Of a stretch of 64,000 bases of DNA, positions 3,918 to 64,000 are shown piece by piece. The notes under the pieces are model-generated. The model was not told where the DNA came from, did no database searches, and saw only the letters and a program-made list of their open reading frames with translations. The stretch's first letter is position 1. Each line of letters starts with the position of its first letter. The DNA is from a virus (taxonomy: Duplodnaviria > Heunggongvirae > Uroviricota > Caudoviricetes), in the IMG/VR virus record IMGVR_UViG_3300033076_001232, positions 142,435-206,434 of that record. One strand, written 5' to 3'. The translations under genes were made by a program, and so were the position numbers.

Positions 3918-3968
3918 CTTTTTTGAAACATTTTAGATAAATACTAATATAAAAATTAAATTATTATT

Positions 3969-29448: not shown

Positions 29449-31020
29449 ATGAAAGGAATAAACCCAGCCCTTCTAACCGACGGTTATAAAACAGGGCACC
29501 ATCAGCAATACCCGGAGGGAACAACTCTAGTGTATTCTAACTTTACCCCAAGAAGTAACAAGTATGCACCTAAGGGATGCGATCATGTTGTTTCTTTTGG
29601 TCAGCAACTTATCATGAAGCAGATTCACGAGAGCTTCCAAAAAGATTTCTTCGATCAGCCTAAAGATGAGGTGTGCTCGGAAATTAAGAGAGAGCTTTCT
29701 CTTTATCTAGGAGTCGATTACGATGTTAGTCACTTCGAAGCCCTTCACGATCTTGGATATTTACCTATTAAGGTTAAAGCAATCAAAGAGGGAACTTTAG
29801 TGCCAATCAAGGTTCCTGTCTTGACTATCTATAATACGGATCCCAACTTTTACTGGGTAACCAACTATTTGGAAACACTAATCTCAAATCTTCTTTGGAA
29901 GCCAATGACTTCCGCAACAATTGCTTACCAATACAAGAGAGTTCTTACCGATTGGGCTCTTAAAACCGACAAGGAAAACAAAACATTTGTTCAGTGGCAA
30001 GGTCACGATTTCTCTATGAGAGGTATGGATTCAGTGGATGCTGTAATTTCTTCCGGTCTTGGACACCTAACATCTTTTACTGGAACAGATTCCCTTCCTG
30101 CAATTTACGGAGCTCGTAAGTATTACGGAGCGGAAGGATTTGTCGCAGCGTCAGTGCCAGCAACAGAACACTCGGTAATGTGTGCTGGCGGGAAAGAGGA
30201 TGAGATTGAGACATTCCGAAGACTGATTAAGACTTACCCTGCTGGTATCTTGTCAGTAGTATCTGATACTTGGGATTTGTGGAAAGTGTGTACGGAGCAT
30301 GTGGTTACTTTGAAAGAAGAGATTTTGGCTCGTGATGGTAAGTTGGTTATTCGTCCTGATAGTGGTGACCCGGTTGATATCCTTTGCGGTACAGAAGATT
30401 ATACAAAATCTAAATTACCTTATGATGAGGTTAAAGATGTAGAAGTTATGCACCCTAGCCAAAAAGGTGTAATTGAACTTCTTTGGGATGTATTTGGAGG
30501 AACTGTTAACGAACAAGGTTACAAAGTACTTGATCCACATATCGGAGCAATCTATGGCGATAGCATTACTATCGATCGTGCTGAGCAAATCTGCAGCAGA
30601 TTAGCTTCAAAGGGATTTGCATCAACAAACGTAGTGCTTGGGGTAGGATCTTTCACTTACCAGTACAACACCCGCGATACATTTGGTTTTGCAATGAAGG
30701 CAACTTATGTTGAGGTTAAGGTTCCTAAATATGGTGATTTTGCGGACCAAGGGTTGAATACCGAAATTGAAGGTAGAGAAATCTTCAAAGATCCAATCAC
30801 CGATGATGGAACGAAGAAATCTGCAACTGGCTTACTAAGCGTAGTTAGCCGTCCAGGTGAAGGTTTAACCCTAGTTGATAAGTGCGACTGGAAACATGAA
30901 AATGTCGGAGCATTGGAAACAATCTACCACGACGGAAAATCTAGCTCCGAGATCACTCTTTCTGAAATTAGAAACAATCTTGAATTTTCTTTGATTAAAG
31001 AGAGAGAAATTATTTTTTAA
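29449..31020 (+). CDS. Nicotinamide phosphoribosyltransferase-family protein (NAMPT/NadV-like; possibly Namat-type)
   Basis: VPATEHSVM, SFTGTDS, IRPDSGDPV motifs conserved with NAMPT. Confidence 0.7.
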   Translation: MKGINPALLTDGYKTGHHQQYPEGTTLVYSNFTPRSNKYAPKGCDHVVSFGQQLIMKQIHESFQKDFFDQPKDEVCSEIKRELSLYLGVDYDVSHFEALHDLGYLPIKVKAIKEGTLVPIKVPVLTIYNTDPNFYWVTNYLETLISNLLWKPMTSATIAYQYKRVLTDWALKTDKENKTFVQWQGHDFSMRGMDSVDAVISSGLGHLTSFTGTDSLPAIYGARKYYGAEGFVAASVPATEHSVMCAGGKEDEIETFRRLIKTYPAGILSVVSDTWDLWKVCTEHVVTLKEEILARDGKLVIRPDSGDPVDILCGTEDYTKSKLPYDEVKDVEVMHPSQKGVIELLWDVFGGTVNEQGYKVLDPHIGAIYGDSITIDRAEQICSRLASKGFASTNVVLGVGSFTYQYNTRDTFGFAMKATYVEVKVPKYGDFADQGLNTEIEGREIFKDPITDDGTKKSATGLLSVVSRPGEGLTLVDKCDWKHENVGALETIYHDGKSSSEITLSEIRNNLEFSLIKEREIIF

Positions 31021-38108: not shown

Positions 38109-39044
38109 ATGAAAAAAAATTTATTATCGACCTCATACAATATGAAGTCTGACCTTGTTTCTATCACCATACCTTATTTAGATTTAGATCTGACTGATCT
38201 AACCCCGGAGATTTTGAATGAGCCTGAAATTTTCTCACAACCTAGAAATTTATCGGCTTATAGTAAATTTGTTCAGCTAGAGAGGTACCAGATTTCAACC
38301 AAATTTTCGAATGACCTAGTTTCGGATCTCCAGCATTTCCACGGGGTCGATGCGGGATCGATGATTAATAATGTCATCTCAGAGGAATTCTTAGTCAAGA
38401 AAGAATCTTTGCTTTATTCTCTCTATCTTGAAAATGCAAAGATAAAATTAGAACCTCGTGAATCTAAATTTGGAGGATGGATTAGGAAAAAACTATTTTC
38501 AGGAAGGGATTTCCCACATTATATTAATATTGAAACCCAAACGGGATCTTCTAAGGTGGTTGATTTGATTTATGAAGCATCCTTCAGGATCAATGACTCC
38601 TGTGTGTTTGGTCCTGGTAATTTTGTTGTCTGCTCACCTCGAATATGTTCTCTAATTAGTAACGATAGAAGATTTGTTTCGGACAATGATCACTCTTTCT
38701 CTCCAATAAATACTGAACTGCTGGGACATTTAAATTCGAATAACAGAATAGATGTGTACGTCAATCCAAAATTAACTTGGGAAGACACTACAATAATAGT
38801 TGGCAGATCCAATTGGGAATCATTAGAAAATGGAACCTATATTGTTGAGAAGAATGATTCACCAACGATCGAGACAATGGAATCGTTACATCAAGGTTTA
38901 GAGAAAGTCACAAGGGGTGTTCATTATATGACAGTGGGTAACCTTTCAAGAGAATCTACATATTCGAGATTTGTAAGGATAGACATAGCGACTGGAAAAA
39001 AACCTTTCTGGAGGAAACTATTGTACTTGTTTGGAGTTGAATAA
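38109..39044 (+). CDS. Hypothetical protein
   Basis: ORF track. Confidence 0.45.
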   Translation: MKKNLLSTSYNMKSDLVSITIPYLDLDLTDLTPEILNEPEIFSQPRNLSAYSKFVQLERYQISTKFSNDLVSDLQHFHGVDAGSMINNVISEEFLVKKESLLYSLYLENAKIKLEPRESKFGGWIRKKLFSGRDFPHYINIETQTGSSKVVDLIYEASFRINDSCVFGPGNFVVCSPRICSLISNDRRFVSDNDHSFSPINTELLGHLNSNNRIDVYVNPKLTWEDTTIIVGRSNWESLENGTYIVEKNDSPTIETMESLHQGLEKVTRGVHYMTVGNLSRESTYSRFVRIDIATGKKPFWRKLLYLFGVE

Positions 39045-48575: not shown

Positions 48576-49445
48576 ATGAAAGATGCACTAGGCGACAGAA
48601 TGAAGGACTTTTACGAAGACCGAACACGTTACAAGTTGGCACGTCGCACCAACACGATTATCCGCATTGACGGAAAAGCTTTCCACACTTACACAAAGGG
48701 TTTAAAGAGACCTTTTGATGAAGGTTTAATGGAGGACATGAATAAGACAACTGAGTTTCTATGTCAGAATATTCAAGGAGCAAAATTTGGATACGTTCAA
48801 TCAGATGAGATTTCTATTCTCATCACTGATTACGATGATATGAGTACACACGCTTGGTTTGATGGTAACCTACAAAAGATGTCATCCATTGCTGCATCAT
48901 TGACAACTGCAAAGTTTAACCAATTAAGAATGGCAAGATTCTGTAGGAATGAAGGAATCGAGCCAAAGTATAGAGAAGATTCTTACATCAGTAACTCTCA
49001 AATCGGGGATTTCAAACTTGCAATGTTTGATGCACGTGTTTTTCAGATTCCTTACCAAGAAGAAGTGATTAACTACTTTATCTGGAGACAGCAAGATGCT
49101 ACAAGGAATTCTATCTCTTCTGTTGCCCAATCTTACTTCTCACCAAAAGAACTCCATGGTAAGAAAACAAGTGAAATGCAGGACCTGTTAATGTTACAAA
49201 AGAATATTAACTGGAACGATTTTACCCCAAGGGAGAAGAGAGGATCATTGATTAGAAAAGTTGAGAAAAAATTTGTTAGAACTAATCCTATCGACGACGG
49301 TAAGACCTATCCAATTGACACGAACCAAACTTATACAAGAAATGTTTGGGAAGCTGATGTAGAGACTCCAATCTTTTCCCAAGAAAAGGGATATCTTCGT
49401 TGGCTAATGCCACAAACACAGGACGACAAAACTCCAATCTTGTAA
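48576..49445 (+). CDS. Thg1-like protein (tRNA-His guanylyltransferase family, 3'-5' nucleotidyl transferase)
   Basis: IIRIDGKAFHTY, GYVQSDEISILI, WRQQDA align with Thg1 VVRLDGRNFHRF / GQSDEYS / WRQAD. Confidence 0.7.
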   Translation: MKDALGDRMKDFYEDRTRYKLARRTNTIIRIDGKAFHTYTKGLKRPFDEGLMEDMNKTTEFLCQNIQGAKFGYVQSDEISILITDYDDMSTHAWFDGNLQKMSSIAASLTTAKFNQLRMARFCRNEGIEPKYREDSYISNSQIGDFKLAMFDARVFQIPYQEEVINYFIWRQQDATRNSISSVAQSYFSPKELHGKKTSEMQDLLMLQKNINWNDFTPREKRGSLIRKVEKKFVRTNPIDDGKTYPIDTNQTYTRNVWEADVETPIFSQEKGYLRWLMPQTQDDKTPIL

Positions 49446-50887: not shown

Positions 50888-52408
50888 ATGGAAAATATCA
50901 TACCTTTTAGCACATACTCATCTTTAAACGAGTCAGTAGATCCAAATGCTACTAATATCATTATAGGTGATTCTCAATCACCTCTGATGGCTTTAAATAT
51001 CAAGAACGCAAGTCTTATTTCTAAACAACAGGGGGAATCTTCTCTATGGAAAGGAGGAATGGGCGTAAAATGGTTAAAGGATGCGGTTTCAAAGTATCCA
51101 GTTTCACCAAGAATACAAAACGTTGTGATCAACATTGGTACAAATGGAGGATTTAACAAGAGAGATGATATTAAAGGTCTATACGATCAACTAAAAAGAG
51201 CATTTCCTAACGCTAGATTTTTACAATTACAAGGAACATGGGGATGGGGTGGTAATAAAAACGTAACCGAATCCCAGGTTAAAGATTATTACAAGGAGTT
51301 CGAAAAACAGGGAGCAATAATAGTTTATCCTGCTAAGGGATACGTAGCAACAGATAGAGAAGCACATACAAATAGACCGATTCTAGCCAAACTTGGTGCT
51401 GAGGTTGATAGATTGATAAATACCCCAGGCAAATCTGTATCTTCTGCGGTTTCATATTCATCAACATCGAGCAGTCAATCAACAAACACACAGCAATATT
51501 CAGCTGGGTCATCTAATGTTATTGGAGGTATAATTTCTAGACCCGGTGATCCCTACAAATACAAGGTAGAGAATGATCACTGGATGGCTAAAAGGGACGA
51601 TCACACCCGATGGTACGAAATTACAGGTAAGGACTTCAAACCTGGATACCAGGTGTCTATAGATATTTTAGATACCGAGAACCCAAATGCAAGGACAGAA
51701 AAAGCTCCAAAAAGAACCGTTAAGAATAACGGAGGTAATGTTAACAATGGTGGTAATGTTAACAATGGTGGTAATATTAATAATGGAGGTGGTAGCGAAG
51801 AGGATAACATAGATCAGGTTCTTCTTCCTTTTGGAAAGGGTGCGGATCCAGAAAAATTAGATCCTAAAATATCTAAAGAATTTAATTTTCATCTTATCCC
51901 GGATGGGAAAGATACCAACTATAGAAGTGCTCAGCTCCCTATGAAACACCTGAAAGACATGTACATCAAATACGGAGTTAAGAGAGTAATTAGATTAAAC
52001 GGGGACGGGAAAGATGCTAAGCATCATCTACTTAATAAGCCAGTAACTATCCAACAAGAAAGAGATCTATGTAAAGAGATCGGATGTGAATTTCATAAGT
52101 TATCAGCAACTAAGGATCAGGAAAAAATAAATCAGTTACTTGCACAGGGAAATACTCTCATCCACTGTGCTCACGGAGCAGACAGAACAGGAGGAACAGT
52201 TGGTGGGTATTTCTATGATACGAAGGTTAATCCGAGTCTAACTACAACTGATGCAATATGGAAGTACACTACCCAATATAATAACTGGAACTCTATGGCT
52301 AAGAATAGACCAAAGAAATTTGCAGATGGTGGTTACTTAACATTGGCTCAAAAATTTGGAGTGGCCGATCTAGAAACAGCAAACAAATTAGCAAAAAAAT
52401 ACAAATAA
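50888..52408 (+). CDS. Fusion protein: N-terminal SGNH/GDSL-like hydrolase, G/N-rich repeat linker, C-terminal cysteine phosphatase (HCxxGxxR; RNA 5'-phosphatase/PTP-like)
   Basis: IIIGDSQS block I; NNGGNVNNGGNVNNGGNINNGGG linker; LIHCAHGADRTGG P-loop. Confidence 0.55.
   Translation: MENIIPFSTYSSLNESVDPNATNIIIGDSQSPLMALNIKNASLISKQQGESSLWKGGMGVKWLKDAVSKYPVSPRIQNVVINIGTNGGFNKRDDIKGLYDQLKRAFPNARFLQLQGTWGWGGNKNVTESQVKDYYKEFEKQGAIIVYPAKGYVATDREAHTNRPILAKLGAEVDRLINTPGKSVSSAVSYSSTSSSQSTNTQQYSAGSSNVIGGIISRPGDPYKYKVENDHWMAKRDDHTRWYEITGKDFKPGYQVSIDILDTENPNARTEKAPKRTVKNNGGNVNNGGNVNNGGNINNGGGSEEDNIDQVLLPFGKGADPEKLDPKISKEFNFHLIPDGKDTNYRSAQLPMKHLKDMYIKYGVKRVIRLNGDGKDAKHHLLNKPVTIQQERDLCKEIGCEFHKLSATKDQEKINQLLAQGNTLIHCAHGADRTGGTVGGYFYDTKVNPSLTTTDAIWKYTTQYNNWNSMAKNRPKKFADGGYLTLAQKFGVADLETANKLAKKYK
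51731..51793 (+). repeat. 18-nt tandem repeat (ggtggtaatgttaacaat x ~3.5) encoding GGNVNN units
   Basis: Direct reading of sequence. Confidence 0.9.
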
Positions 52409-52409
52409 A

Positions 52410-52697
52410 ATGAAAGTAGAAGTTATCGATTTTTACGCCGATTGGTGTAATCCTTGCAAGGCTATGAGTCCTGCAATTCAAGCACTCCAAGAAGAGTTTC
52501 CGGAAGGAAATGAATCGGGTGTTACAATCACAAAAATTAATGTGGATTCAAATCCAGAAGAAGCAAAGAAATACAATATTAGATCTATCCCAACACTAGT
52601 TTTTTTAAAGGAGGGAATAGAGAGCGAGAGAGCATCTGGTGCTAAAACTAAAGATTTTATCAAGGAAAGAATCAATGAGATTATTTTAAACAACTAA
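52410..52697 (+). CDS. Thioredoxin
   Basis: YADWCNPCK (CxxC) active site; ~95 aa. Confidence 0.8.
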   Translation: MKVEVIDFYADWCNPCKAMSPAIQALQEEFPEGNESGVTITKINVDSNPEEAKKYNIRSIPTLVFLKEGIESERASGAKTKDFIKERINEIILNN

Positions 52698-52838: not shown

Positions 52839-53312
52839 ATGGAAAACTTAAAAGCTATTGCAGAACTGGCTAACGCCTTAAAAAATGACATTCGTGTAAA
52901 ATCGTGGATTGCTCCAAACCAGCCTCTTTTCGTGAATAGCGAGGAGAACAGCGATATGTTCTTAACAACTTATCGAATAAGAAACTCATATGAGATACTT
53001 TTAAATAAGCTGGATCTATATGAGGAGATTACTGATGAGAAAGATATGGTTCTTATAAATCGATTATTCGAAATGGATTTTTATCCTCCTAGAAAAATGA
53101 GTCTTAGCGATTGGAAGAACGGAAGAGATCCAATCGTCAGAGTTACAAAGGCATATAAGGATTTAAGATGGAAGGGAAACCGAAGAAGGAGATATGAAAT
53201 TACTTTAGAATTAGATAACGGAAAAAAACATCAGATAAATCCAAATAATGTTTTAAATAAGTTCTTATCCATTAGAAAATCGTTACCTGCATTAGCAGAT
53301 TCAAACCTATAA
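52839..53312 (+). CDS. Hypothetical protein
   Basis: ORF track. Confidence 0.45.
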   Translation: MENLKAIAELANALKNDIRVKSWIAPNQPLFVNSEENSDMFLTTYRIRNSYEILLNKLDLYEEITDEKDMVLINRLFEMDFYPPRKMSLSDWKNGRDPIVRVTKAYKDLRWKGNRRRRYEITLELDNGKKHQINPNNVLNKFLSIRKSLPALADSNL

Positions 53313-53316
53313 AAAA

Positions 53317-53342
53317 GGAGACCTTTGGGTCTCCTTTTTTTT
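53317..53342. terminator. Bidirectional rho-independent terminator between convergent genes
   Basis: stem ggagacc/ggtctcc, loop tttg, A-run before and T-run after. Confidence 0.8.
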
Positions 53343-53497: not shown

Positions 53498-54106
53498 TTA
53501 GATTATATCTGTTGACTCCAACAGAGTGTACGAGAAAGCATTCCCGTGTATTTTAGCAGCCTTCTTACAGATAGCCATAAATTGATCGAAATCTTTGACT
53601 CTTTTAAAGACCTGACATCCTTCGCTCCAATTTTCTACCCATGCTGAATCGGTTCCAGCCTTATGAATATTAATACCAAACATTCCTGTGTCTGTTACCT
53701 TTTCTTCGAAAAGTAGGTCTCTGTTCTTGTCTCTCCATACCGTTACGTTTCCGTTTCTTTGACATAGAGCTTCATACTTACCCTGGTGTTTGTCAATCTT
53801 CCAAACTCCTCTATATTGTCCTGGCACCAATCTAGCTACACCTTTATTGTTATGGAACTCCATAACACCTTTTTTACCCGGATCGCAAGTACCAGCCCAA
53901 CAAAAGAATTGCCAGTTACCAGATTCATCTTTGTATGATATAGTTAAGTGATCGTCGAAAACGTTTGTAACTTTGTCTGCGACACTAGGAGCATTATTTC
54001 TTACCCCAACAATGTTTACATCATAGGTTTTATTAGAAGAATCGTCAAACCATTTGTAACCTTTACTTGTAACAGCCTTTTCAATCTGTTCTCTTGTGTA
54101 ACTCAT
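53498..54106 (-). CDS. YkuD-like (L,D-transpeptidase fold) protein; cell-wall peptidase candidate
   Basis: H(x16)SEGCQV resembling YkuD H..S.GC.R catalytic arrangement. Confidence 0.35.
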   Translation of the reverse strand: MSYTREQIEKAVTSKGYKWFDDSSNKTYDVNIVGVRNNAPSVADKVTNVFDDHLTISYKDESGNWQFFCWAGTCDPGKKGVMEFHNNKGVARLVPGQYRGVWKIDKHQGKYEALCQRNGNVTVWRDKNRDLLFEEKVTDTGMFGINIHKAGTDSAWVENWSEGCQVFKRVKDFDQFMAICKKAAKIHGNAFSYTLLESTDII

Positions 54107-54155: not shown

Positions 54156-54632
54156 TTATCGTTTTTCGTCCCTGATTTTTGCTCTATAATAGAGAAGTTT
54201 ATTGACAGTGCTCATGAACAACCAGTCTTCAACATAAGGCAATTTGCATATAAAATTATATTCTCTAAGATAACACATATACTCTTCCTTATTTGGATCT
54301 TTAATGTAATACATGTTATTGCTTAAATATAAGTGATATGATTCATGAACTAATACGCAAGCTATATTGTTGATTGATCCAATCTTCATATCACTCACGT
54401 TAATAGCTATAGTGTGTGGTAATTTGGTGGACGAGTGATCAGATACTATAAATTCTATCTCCTTGCAATTCTCCATAAGAATCCTGTATGATAATGTATC
54501 AGTATCTTTTATTAACCTGATTGCGGAGTCTACTGAATATTTCCATCCATCTCCAACATCAGGTATTTTTATTTGAGCTCTTAAATGAAATATGGATAAG
54601 ATGAATATGATCAGGGTAGCTGCAATACGCAT
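54156..54632 (-). CDS. Secreted small protein with HExxH motif
   Basis: Signal peptide MRIAATLIIFILSIFHLRAQ; VHESYH. Confidence 0.4.
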   Translation of the reverse strand: MRIAATLIIFILSIFHLRAQIKIPDVGDGWKYSVDSAIRLIKDTDTLSYRILMENCKEIEFIVSDHSSTKLPHTIAINVSDMKIGSINNIACVLVHESYHLYLSNNMYYIKDPNKEEYMCYLREYNFICKLPYVEDWLFMSTVNKLLYYRAKIRDEKR

Positions 54633-55060
54633 TGTTCAATTGCTTTTTTTAATGCTGACGATACAGTCATTTTTTGGAAAGGTATTGATCCCTCGACAAC
54701 TTCTAGCATGATGGTTTTTATCTCAGTATCAGATTCACCATAAGCTTCGTACTTATTTCCTTTATAATATAGTCTAACCCCTACCTGTGTTATTTGATTT
54801 GTCTTTTCTATACCTACCACTCTTATAGTGGTTTTAGGTAACCCAAAGAAAAATATCTCAACATCTATTTTTTCGCCGGATTCTGATATACAATATTTTT
54901 CAGAAAGCATATCTTCGGTCATTTGTTTAACGCCAAATCTTATATCTCTCTTTCCTAAATCCTTAAATTTAGCTGTAGAATAAACTGAATCCACAGTCAA
55001 ACATGTTTGACCAAGAGAGATGGCCGGAATAATCAGTAGGAAAAATAATAATCTTTTCAT
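54611..55060 (-). CDS. Secreted hypothetical protein
   Basis: Signal peptide MKRLLFFLLIIPAISLGQ. Confidence 0.45.
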   Translation of the reverse strand: MKRLLFFLLIIPAISLGQTCLTVDSVYSTAKFKDLGKRDIRFGVKQMTEDMLSEKYCISESGEKIDVEIFFFGLPKTTIRVVGIEKTNQITQVGVRLYYKGNKYEAYGESDTEIKTIMLEVVEGSIPFQKMTVSSALKKAIEQCVLQLP

Positions 55061-55065
55061 GTCTA

Positions 55066-56745
55066 TTAATAATTTACTTGTCCAGCATATCCAGGAGCTA
55101 TTAAATATAAGTTTAATGAACCCCCACTTACTGGTGAATTTATTGTATATGAACTTAAACCTGGGTACGTGGACTTGAGATTCGTTGTACCGTTATTTAA
55201 TGCAGTATACTGGGATGACGTATAAAAAGCAGAAGGAGGAGTAGATACCCAGGAGTTAAATCTTCCTTGCTTTTTAGCACTTACATAATATTTGTCAGTA
55301 ACAGTAAGTCGTCCGTCATTATTTACATCATACATATTCCAGTGTAAACTCTTACGAGGAGTAAGCCCAAGAACTACACTTCCTATCGAAGTTAGATCAG
55401 ACTGCTGGATGGAAGTTATTGGGGTAGGCGCATCAAATTGGATATACCATTCGGTTGCCGGATTGGTAGATTGTGAGACACTCCAATAACCAGATGAATT
55501 AGTATAAACTGTTTGTTGTAAAACCCAAGGGGTAAATCCCATGATATAATCAAACTCTATCACATATGGTAGCGAAGTGTTAGGTAAATCGTTCCATTTA
55601 CCACCTCCTACAAATTGTGTATAATCCTCTCCTCCTGCATCGTTTGGTTCTCCACCGTTCCAATTGGTGTATTGATTTAATTTATATCTGTACGCATATA
55701 GATTATATGTTCTATCTATTTCATCCGCAGTTAGAGCTCTATTGAAAACCTGAAAGTCACCCAATCTAAATGAGCCATATCCTCCATGACCCATATTAGT
55801 AAGATCAGATAAACCTAAAGCAAAATATTCACCGTTTCCTGCGTATAAATGAGCAGCTTCTCTCTGAAAGTTAGCGGATCCAAAGTTAACATTATTTAGA
55901 TATCCCCTCATGGTAGTACCATCGTAGGTAATTGCAACTAAGTGCCATGAATTCAAAGTAATTAATGTACTTAATTGAGCAATTCCAGACCCGGTCCAAA
56001 AACCTATCCGTAGAGTGTTATTTCCAGTAATTTCCATAACCGATTCATGCCATCCTGAGGAAGGCGAGGGTGCACCTAGTTCGCTAGCAATAACCCCATT
56101 GCCCGTCGGGTAAACCCACGCAAGAAGAGTAATAACATTTGTGCTTCCAATCTTGGTGGCTAAGTTTCCAGTGATTGCATATGTGCTGGATCCATTGAAT
56201 GTTAAGTATTTACCTCCGGTGCTTGTATATGTAGGGGAGTTATATAAAGTAGCGTTAGTAGGAGAAGCTGTGATGTCAGGTAGAGTTGTTCCTCCAACGT
56301 AAGAAGAAACATCATAATCAGCTTGGAGGTTCGTTGTTACTTTACTTTCAGTCCATCTATAACCTCCTGATGGTTCCGAATATGTGTAACCTGCAATTCT
56401 GTCCTGATAATAACCAATCCATCCGGAAGGCCAAGTATTAAAAAGGAAGTTATTTTCAGCTAGATTGGAAACAGTAGCAAGGTGACCTCCCATGTTTTCA
56501 CAAGCAGCTTTTGCTGCAGTCCATGTCATAGATCCGGTTGATCTATAATAAGAATGACCATTGTAATTAGTTTGTGATGTGAATCCTGTTAGTGTTGGTG
56601 TTGTTCTCTTATAAAGTTTAACCGGAACGTTTACAGCACCAGTTCCATTTGCATTGTAAACGTAACCTGAATATGTAAAAGTCTGACCCAAGACTACGTC
56701 AGCAAAAAAAATCAATAAAGTCCATATAACCGATCTTAATCTCAT
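55066..56745 (-). CDS. Secreted C-type-lectin-like protein with LamG/concanavalin-like domain inserted
   Basis: Signal peptide; WTAAKAACENMGGHLATVSNLAENNFL ... GGEPNDAGGEDYTQFVGGGKWND (EPN/WND CTLD motifs) flanking LamG-like LNSWHLVAITYDG segment. Confidence 0.5.
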   Translation of the reverse strand: MRLRSVIWTLLIFFADVVLGQTFTYSGYVYNANGTGAVNVPVKLYKRTTPTLTGFTSQTNYNGHSYYRSTGSMTWTAAKAACENMGGHLATVSNLAENNFLFNTWPSGWIGYYQDRIAGYTYSEPSGGYRWTESKVTTNLQADYDVSSYVGGTTLPDITASPTNATLYNSPTYTSTGGKYLTFNGSSTYAITGNLATKIGSTNVITLLAWVYPTGNGVIASELGAPSPSSGWHESVMEITGNNTLRIGFWTGSGIAQLSTLITLNSWHLVAITYDGTTMRGYLNNVNFGSANFQREAAHLYAGNGEYFALGLSDLTNMGHGGYGSFRLGDFQVFNRALTADEIDRTYNLYAYRYKLNQYTNWNGGEPNDAGGEDYTQFVGGGKWNDLPNTSLPYVIEFDYIMGFTPWVLQQTVYTNSSGYWSVSQSTNPATEWYIQFDAPTPITSIQQSDLTSIGSVVLGLTPRKSLHWNMYDVNNDGRLTVTDKYYVSAKKQGRFNSWVSTPPSAFYTSSQYTALNNGTTNLKSTYPGLSSYTINSPVSGGSLNLYLIAPGYAGQVNY

Positions 56746-58427
56746 AATAAAAATCTTGTTCCCATCATAACGGTGTAGTTCAAAGCATTTTCTTTAATTG
56801 CCCATGCCCCACCTCCGTTGATGTTTAGTTTAAATTTTTTAGTGATCCCAATGTTGGTACCTAAGATAGGTAAAACAACATGTGGGGATTTTAGAAGTAT
56901 ATCGTTATAGTAGCTCACGTAAGGAGCATAAACATAAAGCCCCATAAGTTTAACTTCTATTCTTTTACCGATCTTCATATCATACATAGTACCAGCAATA
57001 GCTGCAGTCCCTATGAATGGAGCACCATAAACAGAACCAGCTGAAGCGGTTAACATATAAAGAGCTTTAGCTTTTTTATCTTTACCTAAGTTCCACATTT
57101 GTCCAGCTGTGAATGTTCCATATATGGACATCCTCTGATCGAATCCGATAGTTACTGCGGTAGATATTAGATCTATTCTTCTCTTGTGTATGAAGGCATA
57201 AAATCCACTAATATTGGGTCCTTTAATTGCCGTTGTGTAATCAATAAGAAACCCATAAGATCTTGCGCCATCCCATCTCAAAGCTGTATATCCTCCTGTG
57301 AATTTTCCACCATATGAAACATCAGAGTTTTTAAAATTGAACCCTACAAAATCGCTACTCGCTATAACTGAAGGTCTGTTTCCATTCTTATTTGTGGAAT
57401 TTTGAGCTGATGTAACCGATGATCCAACTATATTTGTTTTCCCGCCTCCTTCTGTTTTATCTGGATCTGTCTGTTCGTTGGCATTAGTAGTCTCATTTCC
57501 CTGAGATCCATTAGAAGATCCTCCCTGATTGTTTCCTTGTGAACCTGATGCAGAGGTCTCGTTTGTTTGAGTACTTCCTGTTGTTCCAGATTCGGTAGGC
57601 TGACCTGCGGTTTGTGAACCTTCAGATCCAGTAGATCCAGTAGTTGCTCCTACTGTTTGGTTGTTACTCTGTTCGTTTGATGATCCAGTGGATTGGTTAC
57701 CGCTAGAAGAGCCAGATTCACCGGATTGTCCTGCAGTTTGAGAAGTCGATGAAGATGATTTGATCTCTGATGTGGTTGTTTGACTATTACCCCCCGATGT
57801 AGACTGACCTGTGGTTTGTGAACTCTGACCCCCCGATTCAGTACTTGATCCAGTGTTTGTGGATGTTTGGTTCTGAGAATTCCCTGATCCGCCGGTCTGA
57901 GAAGTTGAATTGTTCTGCTGACTATTATTAGGTGAAGAACCGGAAGAATTGTTCTGTGCAGGATCATTATTGTTCGTATTAGAAGCATTAGAATTTTTCC
58001 CCTTACTGTTACCCTTCTTTTCGCTATTACTTGCATTAGAAGCGCTATTTACGCCCGATAACATATTAGTTGATCCACCTCCGAAGCTTTGTATTGCATC
58101 CAATGAGTTTATGATGCTCACGAAATTTAGAGATGCACTTTGAGCTATATTTATACTGGTCGGAAGACCTACTATAGATGCACATGGATTATTTCCTCCG
58201 AATGACCCGTAAACCCCCTGTGCCCACGTTTCAAAATTTCCATTATAAAAGTCAGTTGATTGGAAAGTATTGACTTGACCGTAATAGGTTACTGTAATAC
58301 CGTTAGAAGGGACGTTTATTGTCTTTAAATCCCCGGTACAAGGATCGGTATAAGAATATGCAATCTGCCCATACACGGAAGAAGAAAATAAAAGTGATAT
58401 GAGTATGAGCAGATGCTTAACATTCAT
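56742..58427 (-). CDS. Secreted protein: N-domain, ~250-aa S/T/G/N/Q mucin-like low-complexity region, C-terminal beta-barrel-like domain
   Basis: Signal peptide; extreme low complexity; alternating hydrophobic C-terminus ending ..GTRFLL. Confidence 0.5.
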   Translation of the reverse strand: MNVKHLLILISLLFSSSVYGQIAYSYTDPCTGDLKTINVPSNGITVTYYGQVNTFQSTDFYNGNFETWAQGVYGSFGGNNPCASIVGLPTSINIAQSASLNFVSIINSLDAIQSFGGGSTNMLSGVNSASNASNSEKKGNSKGKNSNASNTNNNDPAQNNSSGSSPNNSQQNNSTSQTGGSGNSQNQTSTNTGSSTESGGQSSQTTGQSTSGGNSQTTTSEIKSSSSTSQTAGQSGESGSSSGNQSTGSSNEQSNNQTVGATTGSTGSEGSQTAGQPTESGTTGSTQTNETSASGSQGNNQGGSSNGSQGNETTNANEQTDPDKTEGGGKTNIVGSSVTSAQNSTNKNGNRPSVIASSDFVGFNFKNSDVSYGGKFTGGYTALRWDGARSYGFLIDYTTAIKGPNISGFYAFIHKRRIDLISTAVTIGFDQRMSIYGTFTAGQMWNLGKDKKAKALYMLTASAGSVYGAPFIGTAAIAGTMYDMKIGKRIEVKLMGLYVYAPYVSYYNDILLKSPHVVLPILGTNIGITKKFKLNINGGGAWAIKENALNYTVMMGTRFLL

Positions 58428-58428
58428 T

Positions 58429-59151
58429 TTAGTTTTTAAATATTCCTTTTTTAATCATTCTTTGAACTATCCTAGCAGATGCTGTTTCTAATGATTTTTT
58501 AGTTGTTATTCCTATATGGGATTGATTGAATTTAATCTCAGATTCATCTATACCATCTAAGATGGAAACTGTTTTAACTGTATTAGCTTCGCCGAGACCA
58601 GATCCCATTATAATTTCTCCGGTTTCAGCATCTACAAATTTTATCTGTAGACCAAGACGGGTAATCTGGGTTGTCTGGGATTTACCGTCTATCTTTACAA
58701 CTTCGTCATCTGAAACTGAGAAATCATAAACCTCAATATAGACAAAATATTTAGCTAGCATAACCTTGCCTCTCCCGTCCATCGTATTAGCTGTGAATCC
58801 CTTATCCGAAGCTTTAAATTGTTGAACCATTCTTTCTTTGATCTCCAACTTATCCTCAGTAAATACAAAACGGTTAGTGTATTCCAGATACTCTAGAACG
58901 ATGTTTGTTACCCCGAGTCCAACTCTCTTATCTTTTAACTCCGGATACATCTCATATAAATCCTCATTGATTCCTATTTTAAGAATCTGTATAGGGATCT
59001 TGATAGTATCCATATACTCGGGTACTGAATCAAGAGACATTTTCTTTTCGAATCCAGCCTGATATTGCTCAGTCTTAATTGATCCGACAGGCTGAGCAAT
59101 AGATTTAGCTGATATTAGGATAAAAATAATTATTGATAAAAACCTTTTCAT
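58429..59151 (-). CDS. Secreted hypothetical protein (start MKRFLS)
   Basis: Start set at ATG in taagATGa context immediately after upstream stop; signal peptide. Confidence 0.45.
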   Translation of the reverse strand: MKRFLSIIIFILISAKSIAQPVGSIKTEQYQAGFEKKMSLDSVPEYMDTIKIPIQILKIGINEDLYEMYPELKDKRVGLGVTNIVLEYLEYTNRFVFTEDKLEIKERMVQQFKASDKGFTANTMDGRGKVMLAKYFVYIEVYDFSVSDDEVVKIDGKSQTTQITRLGLQIKFVDAETGEIIMGSGLGEANTVKTVSILDGIDESEIKFNQSHIGITTKKSLETASARIVQRMIKKGIFKN

Positions 59152-59152
59152 C

Positions 59153-59551
59153 TTATTCTTCATTAGGTTCTTGAGGAGTTGCTGTGTAGTCGTTATTAGC
59201 AACATTAGATAAAGAAACACCATCTTCCTCGTCTACCTTTTGGATAAGCATCTTATCTCTATCCTCAGAGTTAAACCAATAGTCAACAACTTTATTAAGG
59301 TTACCAACAAATGCTCCTAATAGAATCAATAGCATTTCTTTCCAATCTTCTTTAATTTCTACACCAAAGAAAACTGCGGAGTTTATTCCTGCGATGATGA
59401 AGAAAAATAATCCCAATACGATCGCTGTAATTCTCCATCTGTTTGCCTGCATTTGTTGAAGCATATAGTAGAAACGATTTTTGCTTTCTACCTTTACGAA
59501 ATCTTCTTTACCGAATCCCATAAATTTTTTAAAAGTATTTTTTACTGACAT
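59153..59551 (-). CDS. Small membrane protein
   Basis: Two TM helices. Confidence 0.45.
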   Translation of the reverse strand: MSVKNTFKKFMGFGKEDFVKVESKNRFYYMLQQMQANRWRITAIVLGLFFFIIAGINSAVFFGVEIKEDWKEMLLILLGAFVGNLNKVVDYWFNSEDRDKMLIQKVDEEDGVSLSNVANNDYTATPQEPNEE

Positions 59552-59571
59552 TTTATTTTAATTTATTTTGT

Positions 59572-59916
59572 TTACCATGGAGCATCTGTGCTCTCACTTT
59601 TTTCTTCTTTTTTCTTCTCATCTTTAGCTGGTTTTTCAACAACTCTTTCTTTAATTACAGTTGTACTTCCACCATTAGCATTAGATGAATTGCTCTCAGA
59701 TGAATTATCTACATTAAGATTGATAACCGGTTGTTGAGCTGGTGCAGCTTGTTCGGTTTTCGTTTCTTCCTCGTGTTCACCTCCTCCATTAAATAGAGCA
59801 ACACCTAGCCAAGTTCCACCACCAGCGATAAGTGTGGTTATTGTGCCGATAATGGTCTTTCTTAATCCTGACCAAGTTCCGTCGTTGTGATCTGTGCTTG
59901 TTGTTTCTTCAGACAT
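59572..59916 (-). CDS. Small membrane protein
   Basis: TM helix; K/E-rich tail. Confidence 0.45.
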   Translation of the reverse strand: MSEETTSTDHNDGTWSGLRKTIIGTITTLIAGGGTWLGVALFNGGGEHEEETKTEQAAPAQQPVINLNVDNSSESNSSNANGGSTTVIKERVVEKPAKDEKKKEEKSESTDAPW

Positions 59917-59926
59917 AATTATTAAT

Positions 59927-61849
59927 TTATTTTTGTTTTATTATTCTCAATCCCTCCGATTGATTCTGTGATTGAAGCGTTGCAATATAAATTCCCGATG
60001 CAAGATTTTGTATGTTAGAATAGTAAGTGTAATTTCCAGCTGGCATATTCTTTTCTAATATGATATGTTCAATAGAACCTTGAGAGTTCATAACGTATAT
60101 TTTTACGTTACCTGATTCTTTAACCGTAAAGTTGATGTAAAATTCTCCGGTTGTTGGGTTAGGATAAACTAAAGCCTTATCTGTACCATTCTCTATGGTT
60201 GCCATCTTGGCTACTATAAGTATACCATTCGTTGGAGTTATTGACATATCCTTGGATGCTAAATCCCCCGAGAATTTCCTCGTAGTGTATAGAGGAGAAG
60301 TTTCCCATTCTCCCTGTGGTTTCTTGGCAACGAATTTTAGAGTAAATACGTTATAGTTATCGGGTATCATATATTTCTTATCTGCAGATGGATCATATCC
60401 TGTCCATTCCACTATCCCATCCATTGGATTGATTGAAGAAATCCAAAACATAGATTTATCTGAATTCTGTAATTCCTTGAATTCAAGAAGATCTTCATCG
60501 TAAATCATACCCAGTTGGAGGGATGAGAGCATCTCACCGTTTGTTTTAACTGTAATAGGAAGTTCAACTAGATTGCCCTCGTTTACTTTTATAGTTGGCA
60601 TATTAACCTCCATAGTTTTTGTAGGAAAGTCGTATTCGACGTTCATATCGATTACATTTTCCATTGCTGATGGATAATTGGGATCAGGGTTAGGTAATAT
60701 GGTGATTGGTGTCATACGTGCCATATGATAACCAGTTGCGTTAGCGTCACCAGGAACAAGTACATAGAAAGTAACCGAATCTGGTTGGCCAGGTAGGATG
60801 TTATAGTAGAAGTTTGTTGTTCCTGCTATGGTAGAAGTGTAGTTAGTAGATGGAGATCCTGTAATTGTGTTATATTCTGATACGGTAAAGAATTTAACAT
60901 CTTTAACGTTGTTTGGCCAGAATGAGAATCTCCCCGATATTCTACCGAAAACTCCATAAGCGTCAGTGATAGTTAGATTGTTTGATCCATTAACGTCACC
61001 AGTATAAAAGTCCCATCCAGTAGGAGTAGCACCTCCTAGAATCCATTGATTTATTAATTGAGCATCTGCTGACGAAATAACGTTACCCACTCCCATTGTA
61101 TCACCTTTAATAGCTAAGCGTACATCATAGTATGTGGTATCAATTATTTCACTGAATGAGAAATCTCCATTTATGTCAGTAAGATAAGTTGCATGTTGAG
61201 ACCAAACTGAACCAGTTTTAACTTTTTTCTCTAAAGCGAGAGGTAAGTTTTTTGCTGGTGATCCTGTTACGTTGGTAAACGTACCATGGAAATCTAAATT
61301 AGGCTGATCCCATGCACCGCCGTAGCTGTATAGTGTTAAAGTGGTATCTGTTCCTGGTTGTGATGCAGCGTACTGATTATAAACCTGTGCACCCGTCCAT
61401 TTTAAAGAATCGATTGATGGTAGGGCGTAGAAAGATGCAGCTTGAACGTGGTTAAATGTTACCAAGAATCTTTCGCCGTCTGGTATAGTATATGTTGCGC
61501 TACTCCCGGTATAAACAAGAGTAATTGTTACATTTCCATTCACGTTGTTGTCTAAGAATTGTAAATCCAAATTGGAAGGAGATCCAATTAGAGAGACAGA
61601 TGCCGAAGAGAAAGCGTTTTTATCATAGAAAACTCTAAATTGGACACCAGTATACTTAGTAGCAGTGGTGTTCTTTAAAGTTATTCTAGCCTGAGATTGG
61701 TTTTGGGTAAAAGTACCTAATTGATAAGTGGTATCAATTAGGGCATAAATTCCATTTCCTGGTGCAGGCGGACCTGACTGCGCGAAGATGGTATTCACCG
61801 AAATTGAAAGCAAGCTTAGTAGCAATGCTAAGATAAAATTGTTTTTCAT
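59927..61849 (-). CDS. Secreted protein with type IX secretion system (T9SS) type-A C-terminal sorting domain
   Basis: Signal peptide; C-terminal LVYPNPTTGEFYINF..VKIYVMNSQG..GNYTYYSNIQNLASGIYIATLQS..RIIKQK matches Por_Secre_tail pattern. Confidence 0.7.
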   Translation of the reverse strand: MKNNFILALLLSLLSISVNTIFAQSGPPAPGNGIYALIDTTYQLGTFTQNQSQARITLKNTTATKYTGVQFRVFYDKNAFSSASVSLIGSPSNLDLQFLDNNVNGNVTITLVYTGSSATYTIPDGERFLVTFNHVQAASFYALPSIDSLKWTGAQVYNQYAASQPGTDTTLTLYSYGGAWDQPNLDFHGTFTNVTGSPAKNLPLALEKKVKTGSVWSQHATYLTDINGDFSFSEIIDTTYYDVRLAIKGDTMGVGNVISSADAQLINQWILGGATPTGWDFYTGDVNGSNNLTITDAYGVFGRISGRFSFWPNNVKDVKFFTVSEYNTITGSPSTNYTSTIAGTTNFYYNILPGQPDSVTFYVLVPGDANATGYHMARMTPITILPNPDPNYPSAMENVIDMNVEYDFPTKTMEVNMPTIKVNEGNLVELPITVKTNGEMLSSLQLGMIYDEDLLEFKELQNSDKSMFWISSINPMDGIVEWTGYDPSADKKYMIPDNYNVFTLKFVAKKPQGEWETSPLYTTRKFSGDLASKDMSITPTNGILIVAKMATIENGTDKALVYPNPTTGEFYINFTVKESGNVKIYVMNSQGSIEHIILEKNMPAGNYTYYSNIQNLASGIYIATLQSQNQSEGLRIIKQK

Positions 61850-61896
61850 GATGTAAGATGTTTGTTTTGGTTTTGGTTCTGGTTCTTTTTTAAGTC

Positions 61897-62727
61897 CTAC
61901 ACGGAGGTAAGAGCTTTATAGTATTCTTTGAAGTGTTTGATTCTATCAGCTAGACCTATAGTTCCTCCATTTACTCTTTTAGTAACTGCGGTAACAGTAG
62001 CATCATCTGCACCTCTATCGCATATTGACCACAATTTGTTTGAATCGAAGAAAAATGCTGCAGAAGCCAGAGGATATTTCGTTGCAACTAAATCCGGATT
62101 TGCCACACAATCTTCTCCAATGAACTTAGTAAAGTTAGTGTAGTTTGATTTTCCAGTTAATTGAATATAACCTCTACCTCTAAATTTGAAACCTTCTTTA
62201 GAAGCTTCGTCTCCATTACCCATTCTTGATGCGTAAACCCTGGATGCAATCTTCTCAGGTTGACGAGCATAAGATTCATTTAGATTTCCAGGAAAGTACT
62301 TACCGAATATCTTTTTCAAACCATCAGCAGAATAATTTAGGTTTTCTGTAACTGCCTTAAATCCTCCTGATTCGTGACCGCACTGCGCTAAAAAGTGGGC
62401 TAGTCTTAGGTTATTAGTGATGTTGAATTTTTTTGCAGTGTCTGGGATTTGTGCTAAAACTGCATCAGGAACGTGTCCTCTCAGACCTTCTAAATTTAAA
62501 TTTTCCATCTTAGGTACTGCTACCGGAGCTGATGCAGGCGCAGATTCACCAAACATTTTACTCCAGGTTCCAGGTCCTACAACACCGTCGGCTGTTAAAC
62601 CATTAGCTGCCTGCCACTCTTTTACCTTAGCCTCCGTTCCCGCTCCAAATACTCCGTCTGCACTTAATCCTAGTTTTTGTTGAAGCTTTTTCACTTCTTC
62701 TCCATTGGATCCTTTCTTTAGTAACAT
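61897..62727 (-). CDS. Endolysin: two PG_binding_1 repeats + GH19 (chitinase-like lysozyme) catalytic domain
   Basis: LQQKLGLSADGVFGAGT / LTADGVVGPGT repeats; HFLAQCGHESGG and FRGRGYIQLTGKSNY GH19 motifs. Confidence 0.75.
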   Translation of the reverse strand: MLLKKGSNGEEVKKLQQKLGLSADGVFGAGTEAKVKEWQAANGLTADGVVGPGTWSKMFGESAPASAPVAVPKMENLNLEGLRGHVPDAVLAQIPDTAKKFNITNNLRLAHFLAQCGHESGGFKAVTENLNYSADGLKKIFGKYFPGNLNESYARQPEKIASRVYASRMGNGDEASKEGFKFRGRGYIQLTGKSNYTNFTKFIGEDCVANPDLVATKYPLASAAFFFDSNKLWSICDRGADDATVTAVTKRVNGGTIGLADRIKHFKEYYKALTSV

Positions 62728-62832
62728 ATTTTTGATTTTTTTATTTATATATCCCCCCTTAAATTAAAAATCTCCCCTTAATTTTTTAATAACCGAATCT
62801 TTTTGATAACTTTAGGTATATAAAAATAAAGT

Positions 62833-63114
62833 ATGCACGAAAAACCACTTCTCCAAGATTTTAAAGCAGAGGCTGAAGGAGAAAATTGCATAAAGGTAAC
62901 AGTAGATCCGGACCTCAATCTCGAAGGAGCACATCTTAGAATACTAGGTCCATCCAGGAATTTACTCGTCACAATAAAACCCGTCAATATCGTCAACGAG
63001 ATCTGTCTTTCGACAGATAATCCGATGTTTGTTGAGCTTATAACTCCAAGCGGGGTTTCGGTCCATTATGTTTTTGGATCGGGTAAGGATTTTTACATTA
63101 AAAACTTAAACTAA
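62833..63114 (+). CDS. Hypothetical protein
   Basis: ORF track. Confidence 0.45.
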   Translation: MHEKPLLQDFKAEAEGENCIKVTVDPDLNLEGAHLRILGPSRNLLVTIKPVNIVNEICLSTDNPMFVELITPSGVSVHYVFGSGKDFYIKNLN

Positions 63115-63488
63115 TGGCAGGATACGATTTATTCCCTGATGAATTCGTTGCTCGATACAATGGATTCAAAGAGGGACAGTCCGGATTTTTCTATGATCCA
63201 TATTTGAAAACTCTTATCATCGGAAAAATAGTCGATCATAAATTGAAAGGCCGTGTTATACACAACGGGGTAACTCAAAAAGACATTGACCAGGGAAGAT
63301 ACCTCGCTGCTTGGAGAAACGGATATACCTACGGTGACTGGGATAAGCACGGTATGTTCTATGTGGGAAGACTCAGAAATTACACTAGTTTATCCGGGTA
63401 CATGGAGATACTAGAAACATTCGACGTAGAATCCGCAAAAAATTACTTTAAGACCAAGGAACTACTTCTTGATAATAAGCTCATTTAA
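63114..63488 (+). CDS. Hypothetical protein
   Basis: ORF track. Confidence 0.45.
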   Translation: MAGYDLFPDEFVARYNGFKEGQSGFFYDPYLKTLIIGKIVDHKLKGRVIHNGVTQKDIDQGRYLAAWRNGYTYGDWDKHGMFYVGRLRNYTSLSGYMEILETFDVESAKNYFKTKELLLDNKLI

Positions 63489-63540
63489 TTTTTTTATCCC
63501 GTAGTCAATAGTTATCTTTGTAATTATAAAATCAAAGAGA

Positions 63541-64000
63541 TGGGAAACAGAGAAAAAATAGATTGGGTCATAGCTCAGCACAGAGATACCAATCACATGT
63601 ACGATCAGTATCTTCCGTATGAATTTCATTTAAGAATGGTCGTAAATGCTGCTGGTCAATTCGAGCGTCTGCTATCCTCACAGGAACCAGAATTCATAGA
63701 GAGTATTAAACTTGCATGTTGGGGTCACGATCTAATTGAGGATACGAGAGTTTCCTACAACGACGTTAAGAATATTCTCGGATACAAGGCGGCGGATATG
63801 ATCTATGCTGTTACCAACGAGAAGGGAAGAAATCGAGAGCAGAGGGCAAACCCAAAATACTATGAGGGTATCAGAAATACCAAAGGAGCGGTTTTTGTTA
63901 AACTCTGCGACCGTATAGCAAACGTTCAGTACTCAAAGATGACAGGATCTAGAATGTTTGAAATGTACAAGAAGGAGAACGAGTCCTTCGGGAAATCCCT
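63541..64000 (+). CDS. HD-domain phosphohydrolase-like protein, 3'-truncated at window edge
   Basis: ACWGHDLIEDT HD motif; ORF runs off end of window. Confidence 0.5.

Follow-up and report, generated by a model that had tools for sequence, protein, structure and literature searches.

A phage gene whose product is predicted to leave the host cell through the Bacteroidota type IX secretion system (T9SS) was analyzed together with its genomic context. The gene, hereafter the cargo gene, lies in a 64,000-nucleotide stretch of the IMG/VR virus record IMGVR_UViG_3300033076_001232 (Caudoviricetes; positions 142,435 to 206,434 of the record), and this whole stretch is referred to as the window. With moderate confidence, we propose that the cargo is a non-catalytic scaffold or adhesin that would be made in an infected Flavobacterium-type cell and sent outside via the host machinery, as one component of an envelope-remodeling operon. 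The parts of the gene are the following (CTD, C-terminal sorting domain; SPase I, signal peptidase I; AF2, AlphaFold2; pLDDT, predicted local distance difference test; E, expectation value; HMM, hidden Markov model).

59927..61849, minus strand: cargo gene, 640 amino acids (aa), comprising a signal peptide, an N-terminal beta-sandwich, a shared beta-sandwich plus dockerin-like module, a cohesin, a linker, and a T9SS type-A CTD
61781..61849, minus strand: signal peptide, residues 1-23, with SPase I cleavage predicted between FA and Q, exposing Gln24 (the Bacteroidota Q-rule, PMC5837995)
61304..61777, minus strand: N-terminal beta-sandwich, residues 25-182, no family assigned (AF2 strands at pLDDT 64-83; weak TIGR02059 match, E 0.04)
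60725..61294, minus strand: shared module, residues 186-375, made up of a transthyretin/CarboxypepD_reg-like sandwich (~186-249), a Ca-loop dockerin-like segment, and a tail; homologous to the C terminus of a neighboring lectin
60905-61102, minus strand: Ca-loop dockerin-like segment, residues 250-315 (Dockerin_1 sub-threshold; EF-hand-type loop)
60242..60613, minus strand: cohesin domain, residues 413-536 (PF00963, PDB profile match, Foldseek)
within the cargo gene, minus strand: pre-CTD linker, residues 547-560, hypervariable by family conservation
59930..60169, minus strand: T9SS type-A CTD, residues 561-640 (HMMs, family profile, conservation)

The preliminary description of this gene had assigned the C-terminal ~80 aa to the type-A sorting domain, and the assignment holds: the four elements that it named, YPNPTTGEFYINF, VKIYVMNSQG, GNYTYYSNIQNLASGIYIATLQ, and RIIKQK, all fall within the last 80 residues. 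TIGR04183, the NCBIfam model of the T9SS type A sorting domain that was proposed as the check, scores 37.5 bits (curated cutoff, 23; E 1.7e-9), with residues 561-639 of the 640 covering model positions 1-72 of 72, that is, the full model at the extreme C terminus. The corresponding Pfam model, PF18962, scores 43.3 bits versus a threshold of 27, and no type-B sorting-domain model matches the cargo. A profile of the cargo family also reaches solved CTD chains in the PDB (5jvk_A at E 1.2e-5, then 8glj_D and 8glk_D), and AF2 places six strands in the CTD at residues 569-638, with a pLDDT there of only ~44-67. By these comparisons, the CTD match is well past chance level. The cargo is the sole CTD-bearing open reading frame (ORF) within the 64-kb window.

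Signal peptides were judged by sequence, hydrophobicity, conservation, and the presence of a Gln at position +1 of the cleavage site. The N-terminal signal peptide of the cargo, likewise noted in the preliminary description, has the features of a cleavable one: in MKNNFILALLLSLLSISVNTIFA, directly followed by QSGPP, a basic n-region and a hydrophobic core lead to a small residue preceding the Gln. The site, [AGSC]/Q-x-GP (the slash marks the cut), is found in 104 of 120 cargo-family representatives and, within the fetched loci, in every one of the 17 distinct orthologues; four products of nearby genes that served as controls (endolysin, p202, tm114, and tm132) are without the signal-peptide/Gln pattern. 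Exposure of Gln after SPase I cleavage is a documented Bacteroidota-specific trait (PMC5837995, PMC10653852). The cargo thus has every in silico attribute of a Sec- and T9SS-dependent cargo, which supports export by this route, the secretion itself being a prediction.

The same data bear on the alternative that the "CTD" is merely an immunoglobulin (Ig)-like beta-sandwich on a capsid or fiber protein, unrelated to secretion. Ig-like domains are common on phage virions, and Foldseek searches with the cargo model return Ig-rich adhesins and pilins in addition to the cohesins described below. Nevertheless, we regard this explanation as highly improbable: the HMM match spans the full-length sorting-domain model at the very end of the protein, the cleavable signal peptide is family-wide and has been re-created on the cohesin-CTD half of the split homologue in the cultured Flavobacterium phage vB_FspM_immuto (hereafter, immuto), the products of neighboring genes are themselves Sec-exported, and the immuto gene lies outside the structural module.

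The passenger and the operon were both missed in the preliminary description, and both are more informative than the sorting domain. By sequence and predicted fold, the passenger contains a genuine cohesin: PF00963 scores 40.1 bits on residues 413-536 (gathering score, 24.1), the cargo-family profile matches the PDB cohesin 6kg8 at E 5e-4, and a Foldseek search with the cohesin model, at pLDDT 55-76, gives template modeling (TM) scores to the target of 0.63-0.73 for the type I cohesins 4dh2, 3ul4, and 6kgc. Dockerin binding by this domain is putative. Upstream of it, residues 250-315 include a loop of the EF-hand type with the invariant residues D285, N287, and D296; the second loop, D-x-N-x-[SD]...D, is kept and the first is degenerate. 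The PDB dockerin chain 4uyp_B aligns to the cargo and module profiles at E 0.07-0.5. A firm dockerin identity for this segment was rejected, given the sub-threshold Dockerin_1 score and matches to generic EF-hand loops. No catalytic domain was detected in the cargo with NCBIfam, Pfam, or PHROGs, and as far as these models reach, the passenger is a non-enzymatic scaffold. Conservation is uneven along the protein, with mean pairwise identity across the family highest in the dockerin-like segment (75%), intermediate in the cohesin (60%), and lowest in the pre-CTD linker (20%).

The window has a G+C content of ~36%, and nearly all of its genes are on the plus strand for 53 kb, after which there is one inverted block of ten closely spaced minus-strand genes, running from 62727 down to 53498, of which the cargo gene is the second. 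The block and its boundaries are as follows, in order of transcription.

62728..62832, no strand: AT-rich divergent intergenic region upstream of the block, presumed promoter site
61897..62727, minus strand: endolysin with PG_binding_1 and GH19 domains, first gene of the block; no signal peptide
59927..61849, minus strand: cargo gene, as above
59572..59916, minus strand: tm114, small, with one Gly-rich, weakly hydrophobic segment (below the window threshold of Kyte-Doolittle >1.6), a tail of low complexity, and D[AS]PW conserved at the C terminus
59153..59551, minus strand: tm132, small and highly conserved, strongly hydrophobic at residues 38-67; present in some module variants only
58429..59151, minus strand: sp264, 240 aa from MKRFL, Sec-exported, probable divergent member of the CsgG/LpoB superfamily; most conserved gene of the module
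56742..58427, minus strand: omp561, with a signal peptide followed by an N-domain that has two Cys, a low-complexity stalk of S/T/G/N/Q that varies, and a beta-rich orphan domain at the C terminus, where the protein ends in ...RFLL
55066..56745, minus strand: lectin559, with a signal peptide, a C-type lectin (EPN...WND) interrupted by LamG_3, and the shared dockerin-like module; no CTD
55069-55584, minus strand: shared dockerin-like module of lectin559, residues 388-559, identified by homology to the cargo module
54611..55060, minus strand: sp149, small, Sec-exported, Cys-containing
54156..54632, minus strand: sp158, small, Sec-exported, with an invariant HExxH
53498..54106, minus strand: p202, last gene of the block, matching PHROG 3000 and an endolysin-like PHROG; no signal peptide
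53311..53340, no strand: terminator-like bidirectional intrinsic hairpin with a 13-bp stem, closing the block

No promoter was identified in the upstream region (62728..62832); a sigma-70 scan, with a consensus unsuited to Bacteroidota, gave no enrichment (32 matches versus 36.5 expected). The core run of this block (cargo, tm114, tm132 where present, sp264, omp561, lectin, sp149, and sp158) has the same order in every locus with sufficient flanking sequence, and operon order is maintained both in the IMG/VR contigs and in a 591-kb contig. The endolysin and p202 shift between the ends of the core run and, in this clade, are always on the same strand as the module. Six of the products, namely, the cargo, sp264, omp561, lectin559, sp149, and sp158, have a signal peptide with Gln at +1 in essentially all orthologues. 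In the window, this pattern occurs in 7 of the 80 ORFs of at least 100 aa, and 6 of the 7 are inside the block; the seventh is a NUC1-like nuclease, the immuto homologue of which directly adjoins the module there. PHROGs give no match for 7 of the 10 block genes; the matches are those of the endolysin and p202, plus a virion-structural PHROG for lectin559.

Two genes outside the block deserve mention here. The NUC1/endonuclease-G-like nuclease (18561-19157, plus strand; signal peptide MRGFLFLVTLVSPLFIFS followed by QTKL) is 61% identical to immuto gp012 and is the only Sec-exported protein of the window outside the operon. Just past the operon end lies a thioredoxin gene (52410-52697, plus strand), and a thioredoxin gene also flanks the module at locus L002 and in immuto (gp022); it could be relevant to the many Cys-containing exported proteins.

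Among the neighbors of the cargo gene, sp264 is 63-64% identical between the window and immuto. Its longest ORF (58429-59223, minus strand; 264 aa) overlaps tm132, and public gene calls together with the position of the signal peptide favor the internal MKRFL start at 59151. For sp264 itself, Pfam and the PDB gave no match, with narrow and broad PDB profile searches returning nothing meaningful, and its AF2 model has a pLDDT of 39. Of 30 diverse relatives retrieved with phmmer, however, 14 match Pfam CsgG PF03783 (best E 1.9e-17) and 7 match LpoB, and some family members carry the Joint Genome Institute name CsgG. We therefore consider sp264 a probable divergent member of the CsgG superfamily, an assignment that is transitive via these relatives. 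The protein carries an SPase I site instead of a lipobox, and no module protein matched CsgF or CsgE at E up to 10.

The layout of omp561, an outer-membrane-like protein with a conserved two-Cys head, appears to be autotransporter-like, with a stalk of varying length in orthologues of 474 to 736 aa. A homology search with its C-terminal domain returned the unannotated members of its own family only, a PDB profile search was empty, and a crude amphipathicity test for a beta-barrel gave an indecisive signal. Identity with a PorP/SprF-like anchor was rejected: there is no PorP_SprF signal, and the cysteines of omp561 are in the N-domain of a protein that ends in ...RFLL, whereas the disulfide cysteines of SprF sit in the C-tail, according to the available part of PMC12635249. 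Pfam gave nothing credible for omp561, sp149, tm114, or tm132, and neither the omp561 C-domain nor sp149 has detectable relatives beyond this phage group. In sp158, the HExxH motif (VHESYHL) and downstream Glu residues are conserved in 11 of 11 orthologues; this protein, for which Pfam and a PDB profile search found no relative, is a putative secreted metallopeptidase. An S-x-G-C motif in p202, recognized by reading the sequence only, is reminiscent of L,D-transpeptidase-type active sites.

The composition of the block raises the alternative that it is an extended lysis cassette, in which the cargo and the other proteins directed to the outer membrane would stand in for spanins by weakening or perforating this membrane or by setting the time of lysis. 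The endolysin and the endolysin-like p202 are, in this clade, always on the same strand at one or the other end of the module, tm132 and tm114 are small proteins with hydrophobic segments and of the sizes expected of holins or spanins, and a phage CsgG(F) pore has been proposed as a gated secretin or pinholin by Buchholz et al. (PMC9004378). We nonetheless consider a lysis role for the cargo unlikely. In immuto, the module is ~30 kb from the phage's own holin/endolysin pair (gp190/gp191); the cargo, lectin, and cohesin are binding modules with no obvious membrane-disrupting feature; and tm132 is absent from many module variants.

The interpretation of the cargo as a scaffold gains from its relationship to the lectin. 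Cargo residues 198-374 and lectin559 residues 388-559 are homologous (30% identity and E 4e-8 by BLASTP; profile E 1e-12), and in 14 of the 15 lectin-bearing loci the shared module lies at the C terminus of the lectin, whether the lectin has 330 or 559 aa (the exception is L012). The immuto cargo, in turn, is split between two adjacent genes in different reading frames (L001, 7956-9780): gp014 encodes a signal peptide, the N-domain, and the dockerin-like shared module, and gp015 encodes its own signal peptide, the cohesin, and the CTD. Sequencing error is an unlikely cause of the split because tblastn coordinates are identical in all three isolates. This pattern of fusion/fission, in which a second signal peptide has arisen anew on the half with the cohesin and CTD, suggests that the two halves act together outside the cytoplasm and argues for the cohesin-CTD unit as an exported anchor. 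That the shared module may bind the cohesin seems a reasonable expectation.

The attribution of the window to a phage, as in the preliminary description, is upheld by the distribution of the cargo family, which comprises more than 120 clusters at 58-91% identity, all of ~640 aa. Members are present on 15 IMG/VR contigs of up to 254 kb, in addition to the 591-kb contig; the exact cargo protein is encoded on a 221,881-bp contig, and an identical neighboring gene is found on a 250,353-bp contig. When 50,697 phage records were searched, cargo homologues appeared in immuto only; a near-identity DNA search of these records with window positions 56000-64000 gave no match, and neither did a tblastn search with only the CTD as query. 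Scanning 185,579 bacterial species genomes for the pattern gave one match, a 2.6-kb contig in a Flavobacterium metagenome-assembled genome. The presence on IMG/VR contigs, the immuto homologues, and the near-absence from species genomes indicate that the family is phage-borne.

The annotation of immuto, which was grown on Flavobacterium sp. LMO8, describes a T4-like myovirus and lists gp23, gp20, sheath, and tube genes; the phage has 14 genes in common with the window. Its gp014 and gp015 (NC_055915; annotated as "hypothetical" and "cohesin domain-containing protein") are true homologues of the cargo at 32-35% identity and belong to a homologous module that holds counterparts of 6 of the 8 core-run genes (cargo, tm114, sp264, omp561, lectin, and sp149); homologues of tm132 and sp158 were not detected in immuto. 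The arrangement differs from that of the window in that the cargo occupies two genes, the lectin gene is upstream of the cargo, and the module is located among replication and nucleotide-metabolism genes, away from the virion genes and from the holin/endolysin pair, instead of beside an endolysin.

A window of bacterial origin, in which the cargo would be an ordinary cellular T9SS substrate, has one point in its favor: there is no unambiguous capsid, portal, or terminase gene in the 64 kb, the only virion or packaging hallmark being a weak gp23-like match. The 15 IMG/VR loci, the synteny with a cultured myovirus, the phage-type gene content, and the single 2.6-kb match among the species genomes leave this alternative with a negligible probability. 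The gp23-like match is a 311-aa ORF (38109-39044, plus strand) that is 24% identical to the immuto major capsid protein over 221 aa and matches PHROG 138 (T4-type gp23) at E 7e-9; possibly, this is a capsid-fold protein that is truncated or a paralogue. PHROG matches in the window include endolysin, nicotinamide phosphoribosyltransferase, phosphoribosyl pyrophosphate (PRPP) synthetase, thymidylate synthases, tRNA-His guanylyltransferase, and a "DNA transfer protein." The identification as a phage is based on membership in IMG/VR, on synteny with immuto, and on the gene content as a whole; the genome is probably T4-like and ~220-250 kb in size. The host is very likely a Flavobacterium-like member of Bacteroidota; a Bacteroidota host had previously been deduced from the sorting domain, and that deduction is now reinforced by the signal peptides, which are of the Bacteroidota type with Gln+1, and by the host on which the cultured relative was grown.

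The use of T9SS by a phage had also been presented as an unusual function, and this is an overstatement, since phage-encoded T9SS cargo is already known as a concept, reported in 2019-2020. In Cryophage, type-A cargos (an endoglucanase, a GH39 protein, and a PA14 protein) are encoded in hypervariable metagenomic islands; they were called a "unique occurrence," and the authors proposed that the host system is hijacked to bring phage-encoded sorting-domain proteins to the cell surface or beyond it (Bellas et al. 2020, PMC7468147). Unlike these, the cargo described here appears to be a non-enzymatic cohesin scaffold, strongly conserved, in a fixed multi-gene operon. Sorting domains are present as well on proteins of crAss-like phages, which similarly infect Bacteroidota (de Jonge et al. 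2019, PMC6949934); those are gut phages in which the ORFs adjoin head genes, one of them with crAss-BACON repeats, and no cohesin or envelope operon was described (PMC6949934). In addition, a member of the present family with 56% identity to the cargo is labeled "Secretion system C-terminal sorting domain" in BFVD/UniProt, and Q-rule signal peptides on phage proteins have been noted for Porphyromonas gingivalis phages (PMC10367356). No literature description of the cohesin-CTD family or its operon was found. What seems to be new is that the passenger is predicted to be a non-enzymatic scaffold, that it is strongly conserved, and that a lectin, a probable CsgG relative, and other exported proteins are its fixed partners.

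In the proposed mechanism, the cargo would be exported by Sec and cut by SPase I before Gln24, as the conserved Q-rule signal peptide suggests, and would then fold in the periplasm. The host T9SS translocon would recognize the type-A CTD, which scores above threshold over its full length and follows a hypervariable linker, and would carry the protein over the outer membrane. After transport, the CTD would be removed and the protein either anchored at the surface or released. Outside the cell, the cohesin and the dockerin-like module may mediate protein-protein assembly, a step to which the domain data point only faintly; the likeliest partner would be the co-encoded C-type lectin that ends in the same module, and self-association is possible too. 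Jointly, the six Sec-exported products and the two small membrane proteins would remodel the envelope or surface of the infected cell. Possible payoffs include the capture of new hosts through adhesion or aggregation, the masking of receptors at the surface, and aid to lysis.

The fate of the protein after CTD removal could also be different. Many Flavobacterium type-A CTD proteins are released rather than anchored, and the cargo has the CTD and linker that a released soluble factor would have, acting away from the cell, for example by binding polysaccharides or particles. We hold this outcome to be improbable: the cargo is without an enzymatic or recognized carbohydrate-binding domain of its own, and it is conserved together with membrane and outer-membrane proteins, which suggests an assembly that stays with the cell. 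Another function that would draw on the same export evidence is superinfection exclusion, in which the scaffold and lectin would coat T9SS-dependent receptor structures and block adsorption to infected cells or debris. The lectin has the canonical EPN...WND sugar-binding motif, and resistance to phages in Flavobacterium is commonly traced to genes for gliding and the T9SS, as far as the accessible portion of PMC9804748 goes. Still, the cargo family is strongly conserved (58-91% identity), whereas arms-race exclusion genes usually vary, as the hypervariable Cryophage cargo does by contrast; receptor masking is decidedly unlikely.

Several observations weigh against the scaffold interpretation itself. 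Dockerin_1 (PF00404) scores 16.6 bits in the cargo and 12.6 in the lectin, both below 22.9, and a combined cargo and lectin module profile matches generic EF-hand loops besides dockerins, the latter at E 0.5-0.6. The AF2 model of the whole cargo is mediocre (pLDDT 60; predicted TM score, 0.39), with the dockerin-like region below a pLDDT of 50. The CTD is the least conserved folded domain of the cargo (46%), with its motif positions retained. Lectin559 and immuto gp014 have no CTD, which leaves their passage across the outer membrane unaccounted for. Finally, the endolysin lies in the same operon in this clade, which may mean late expression with little time for export and points toward a role in lysis.

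Operons with a CsgG-family gene are found in other aquatic phages. T4-like pelagimyophages and the OM43 phage Melnitz encode CsgG/CsgF "curli" operons, for which roles in "sibling capture" by aggregation and in lysis timing have been proposed (PMC7029224, PMC9004378). Those phages are T4-like aquatic myophages with a CsgG-family gene in a small operon of exported proteins, a setting that the phage considered here probably shares. Here, in contrast, no CsgF is detected, the probable CsgG relative diverges strongly and carries an SPase I site in place of a lipobox, a T9SS cargo, a lectin, and a stalk protein are additional members of the operon, and the hosts are very likely Bacteroidota rather than Proteobacteria. 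A far-reaching version of the scaffold proposal, which we offer as doubtful speculation, is that the operon encodes a phage-designed surface apparatus. In such an apparatus, the T9SS-exported scaffold would be joined by a CsgG-like channel and an autotransporter-like stalk as a second route or anchor, by dockerin-like modules that might form head-to-tail chains, and by a lectin cap, making the infected cell sticky and able to capture the next hosts before lysis.

Cellular systems offer further parallels. RemA of Flavobacterium johnsoniae, a T9SS-exported surface protein with lectin activity, promotes cell-cell and cell-surface adhesion; it is a gliding adhesin of the cell with the lectin in the same polypeptide, and its likeness to the cargo is by description only. 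The anchoring scaffoldins of cellulosomes, such as OlpA and OlpC of Clostridium thermocellum (PDB 3ul4 and 4dh2), similarly join a single type-I-like cohesin to a surface-anchoring module, and they display partners that bear dockerins; their cohesins rank among the strongest fold matches, with TM scores of ~0.7. They differ in belonging to Gram-positive bacteria, with S-layer homology anchors and bona fide dockerin enzymes, whereas the cargo has a T9SS CTD, a sub-threshold dockerin, and a putative lectin partner.

Other features of the window were recorded as well. A full-length transfer-messenger RNA (tmRNA) gene at 3429-3920 (plus strand) has an ARAGORN tag of EEVELAVAA followed by a stop and matches Rfam RF00023 with 87.3 bits (gathering score, 47) over model positions 1-374 of 374; it is ~2.3 kb downstream of a PHROG-850 "RNA-binding protein" gene (38-1111). 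tmRNAs are known in huge phages. Melnitz, too, encodes a tmRNA (PMC9004378). The genes for PRPP synthetase and nicotinamide phosphoribosyltransferase (21426-22391 and 29449-31020, plus strand) form an NAD+ salvage set, and sets of this kind have been reported for jumbo phages (in the available part of PMC11662467). A Thg1-like tRNA-His guanylyltransferase is encoded at 48576-49445 (plus strand; PHROG 4717, E 2e-88). A 506-aa protein (50888-52408, plus strand) without a PHROG match has NGGN repeats and a C-terminal HCAHGADRT, which by inspection of the residues alone resembles the HCxxGxxR(S/T) signature of Cys-dependent phosphatases.

Across the relatives that were sampled, the cargo gene is conserved and belongs to a fixed operon instead of being a variable accessory gene, and the cultured pair of immuto and Flavobacterium sp. 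LMO8, which carries most of the module, makes the question accessible at the bench. Should export by this route be borne out, a widespread clade of large Flavobacterium phages from fresh and brackish waters would put its own binding proteins on the infected cell via a phylum-specific secretion system. This would be direct evidence of a virus-specified surface on "virocells." The combination of the CTD and Gln+1 signal peptides would then be a sequence-level host marker for uncultured phages, and the unexplained CsgG operons of marine T4-like phages would be linked to a testable function.

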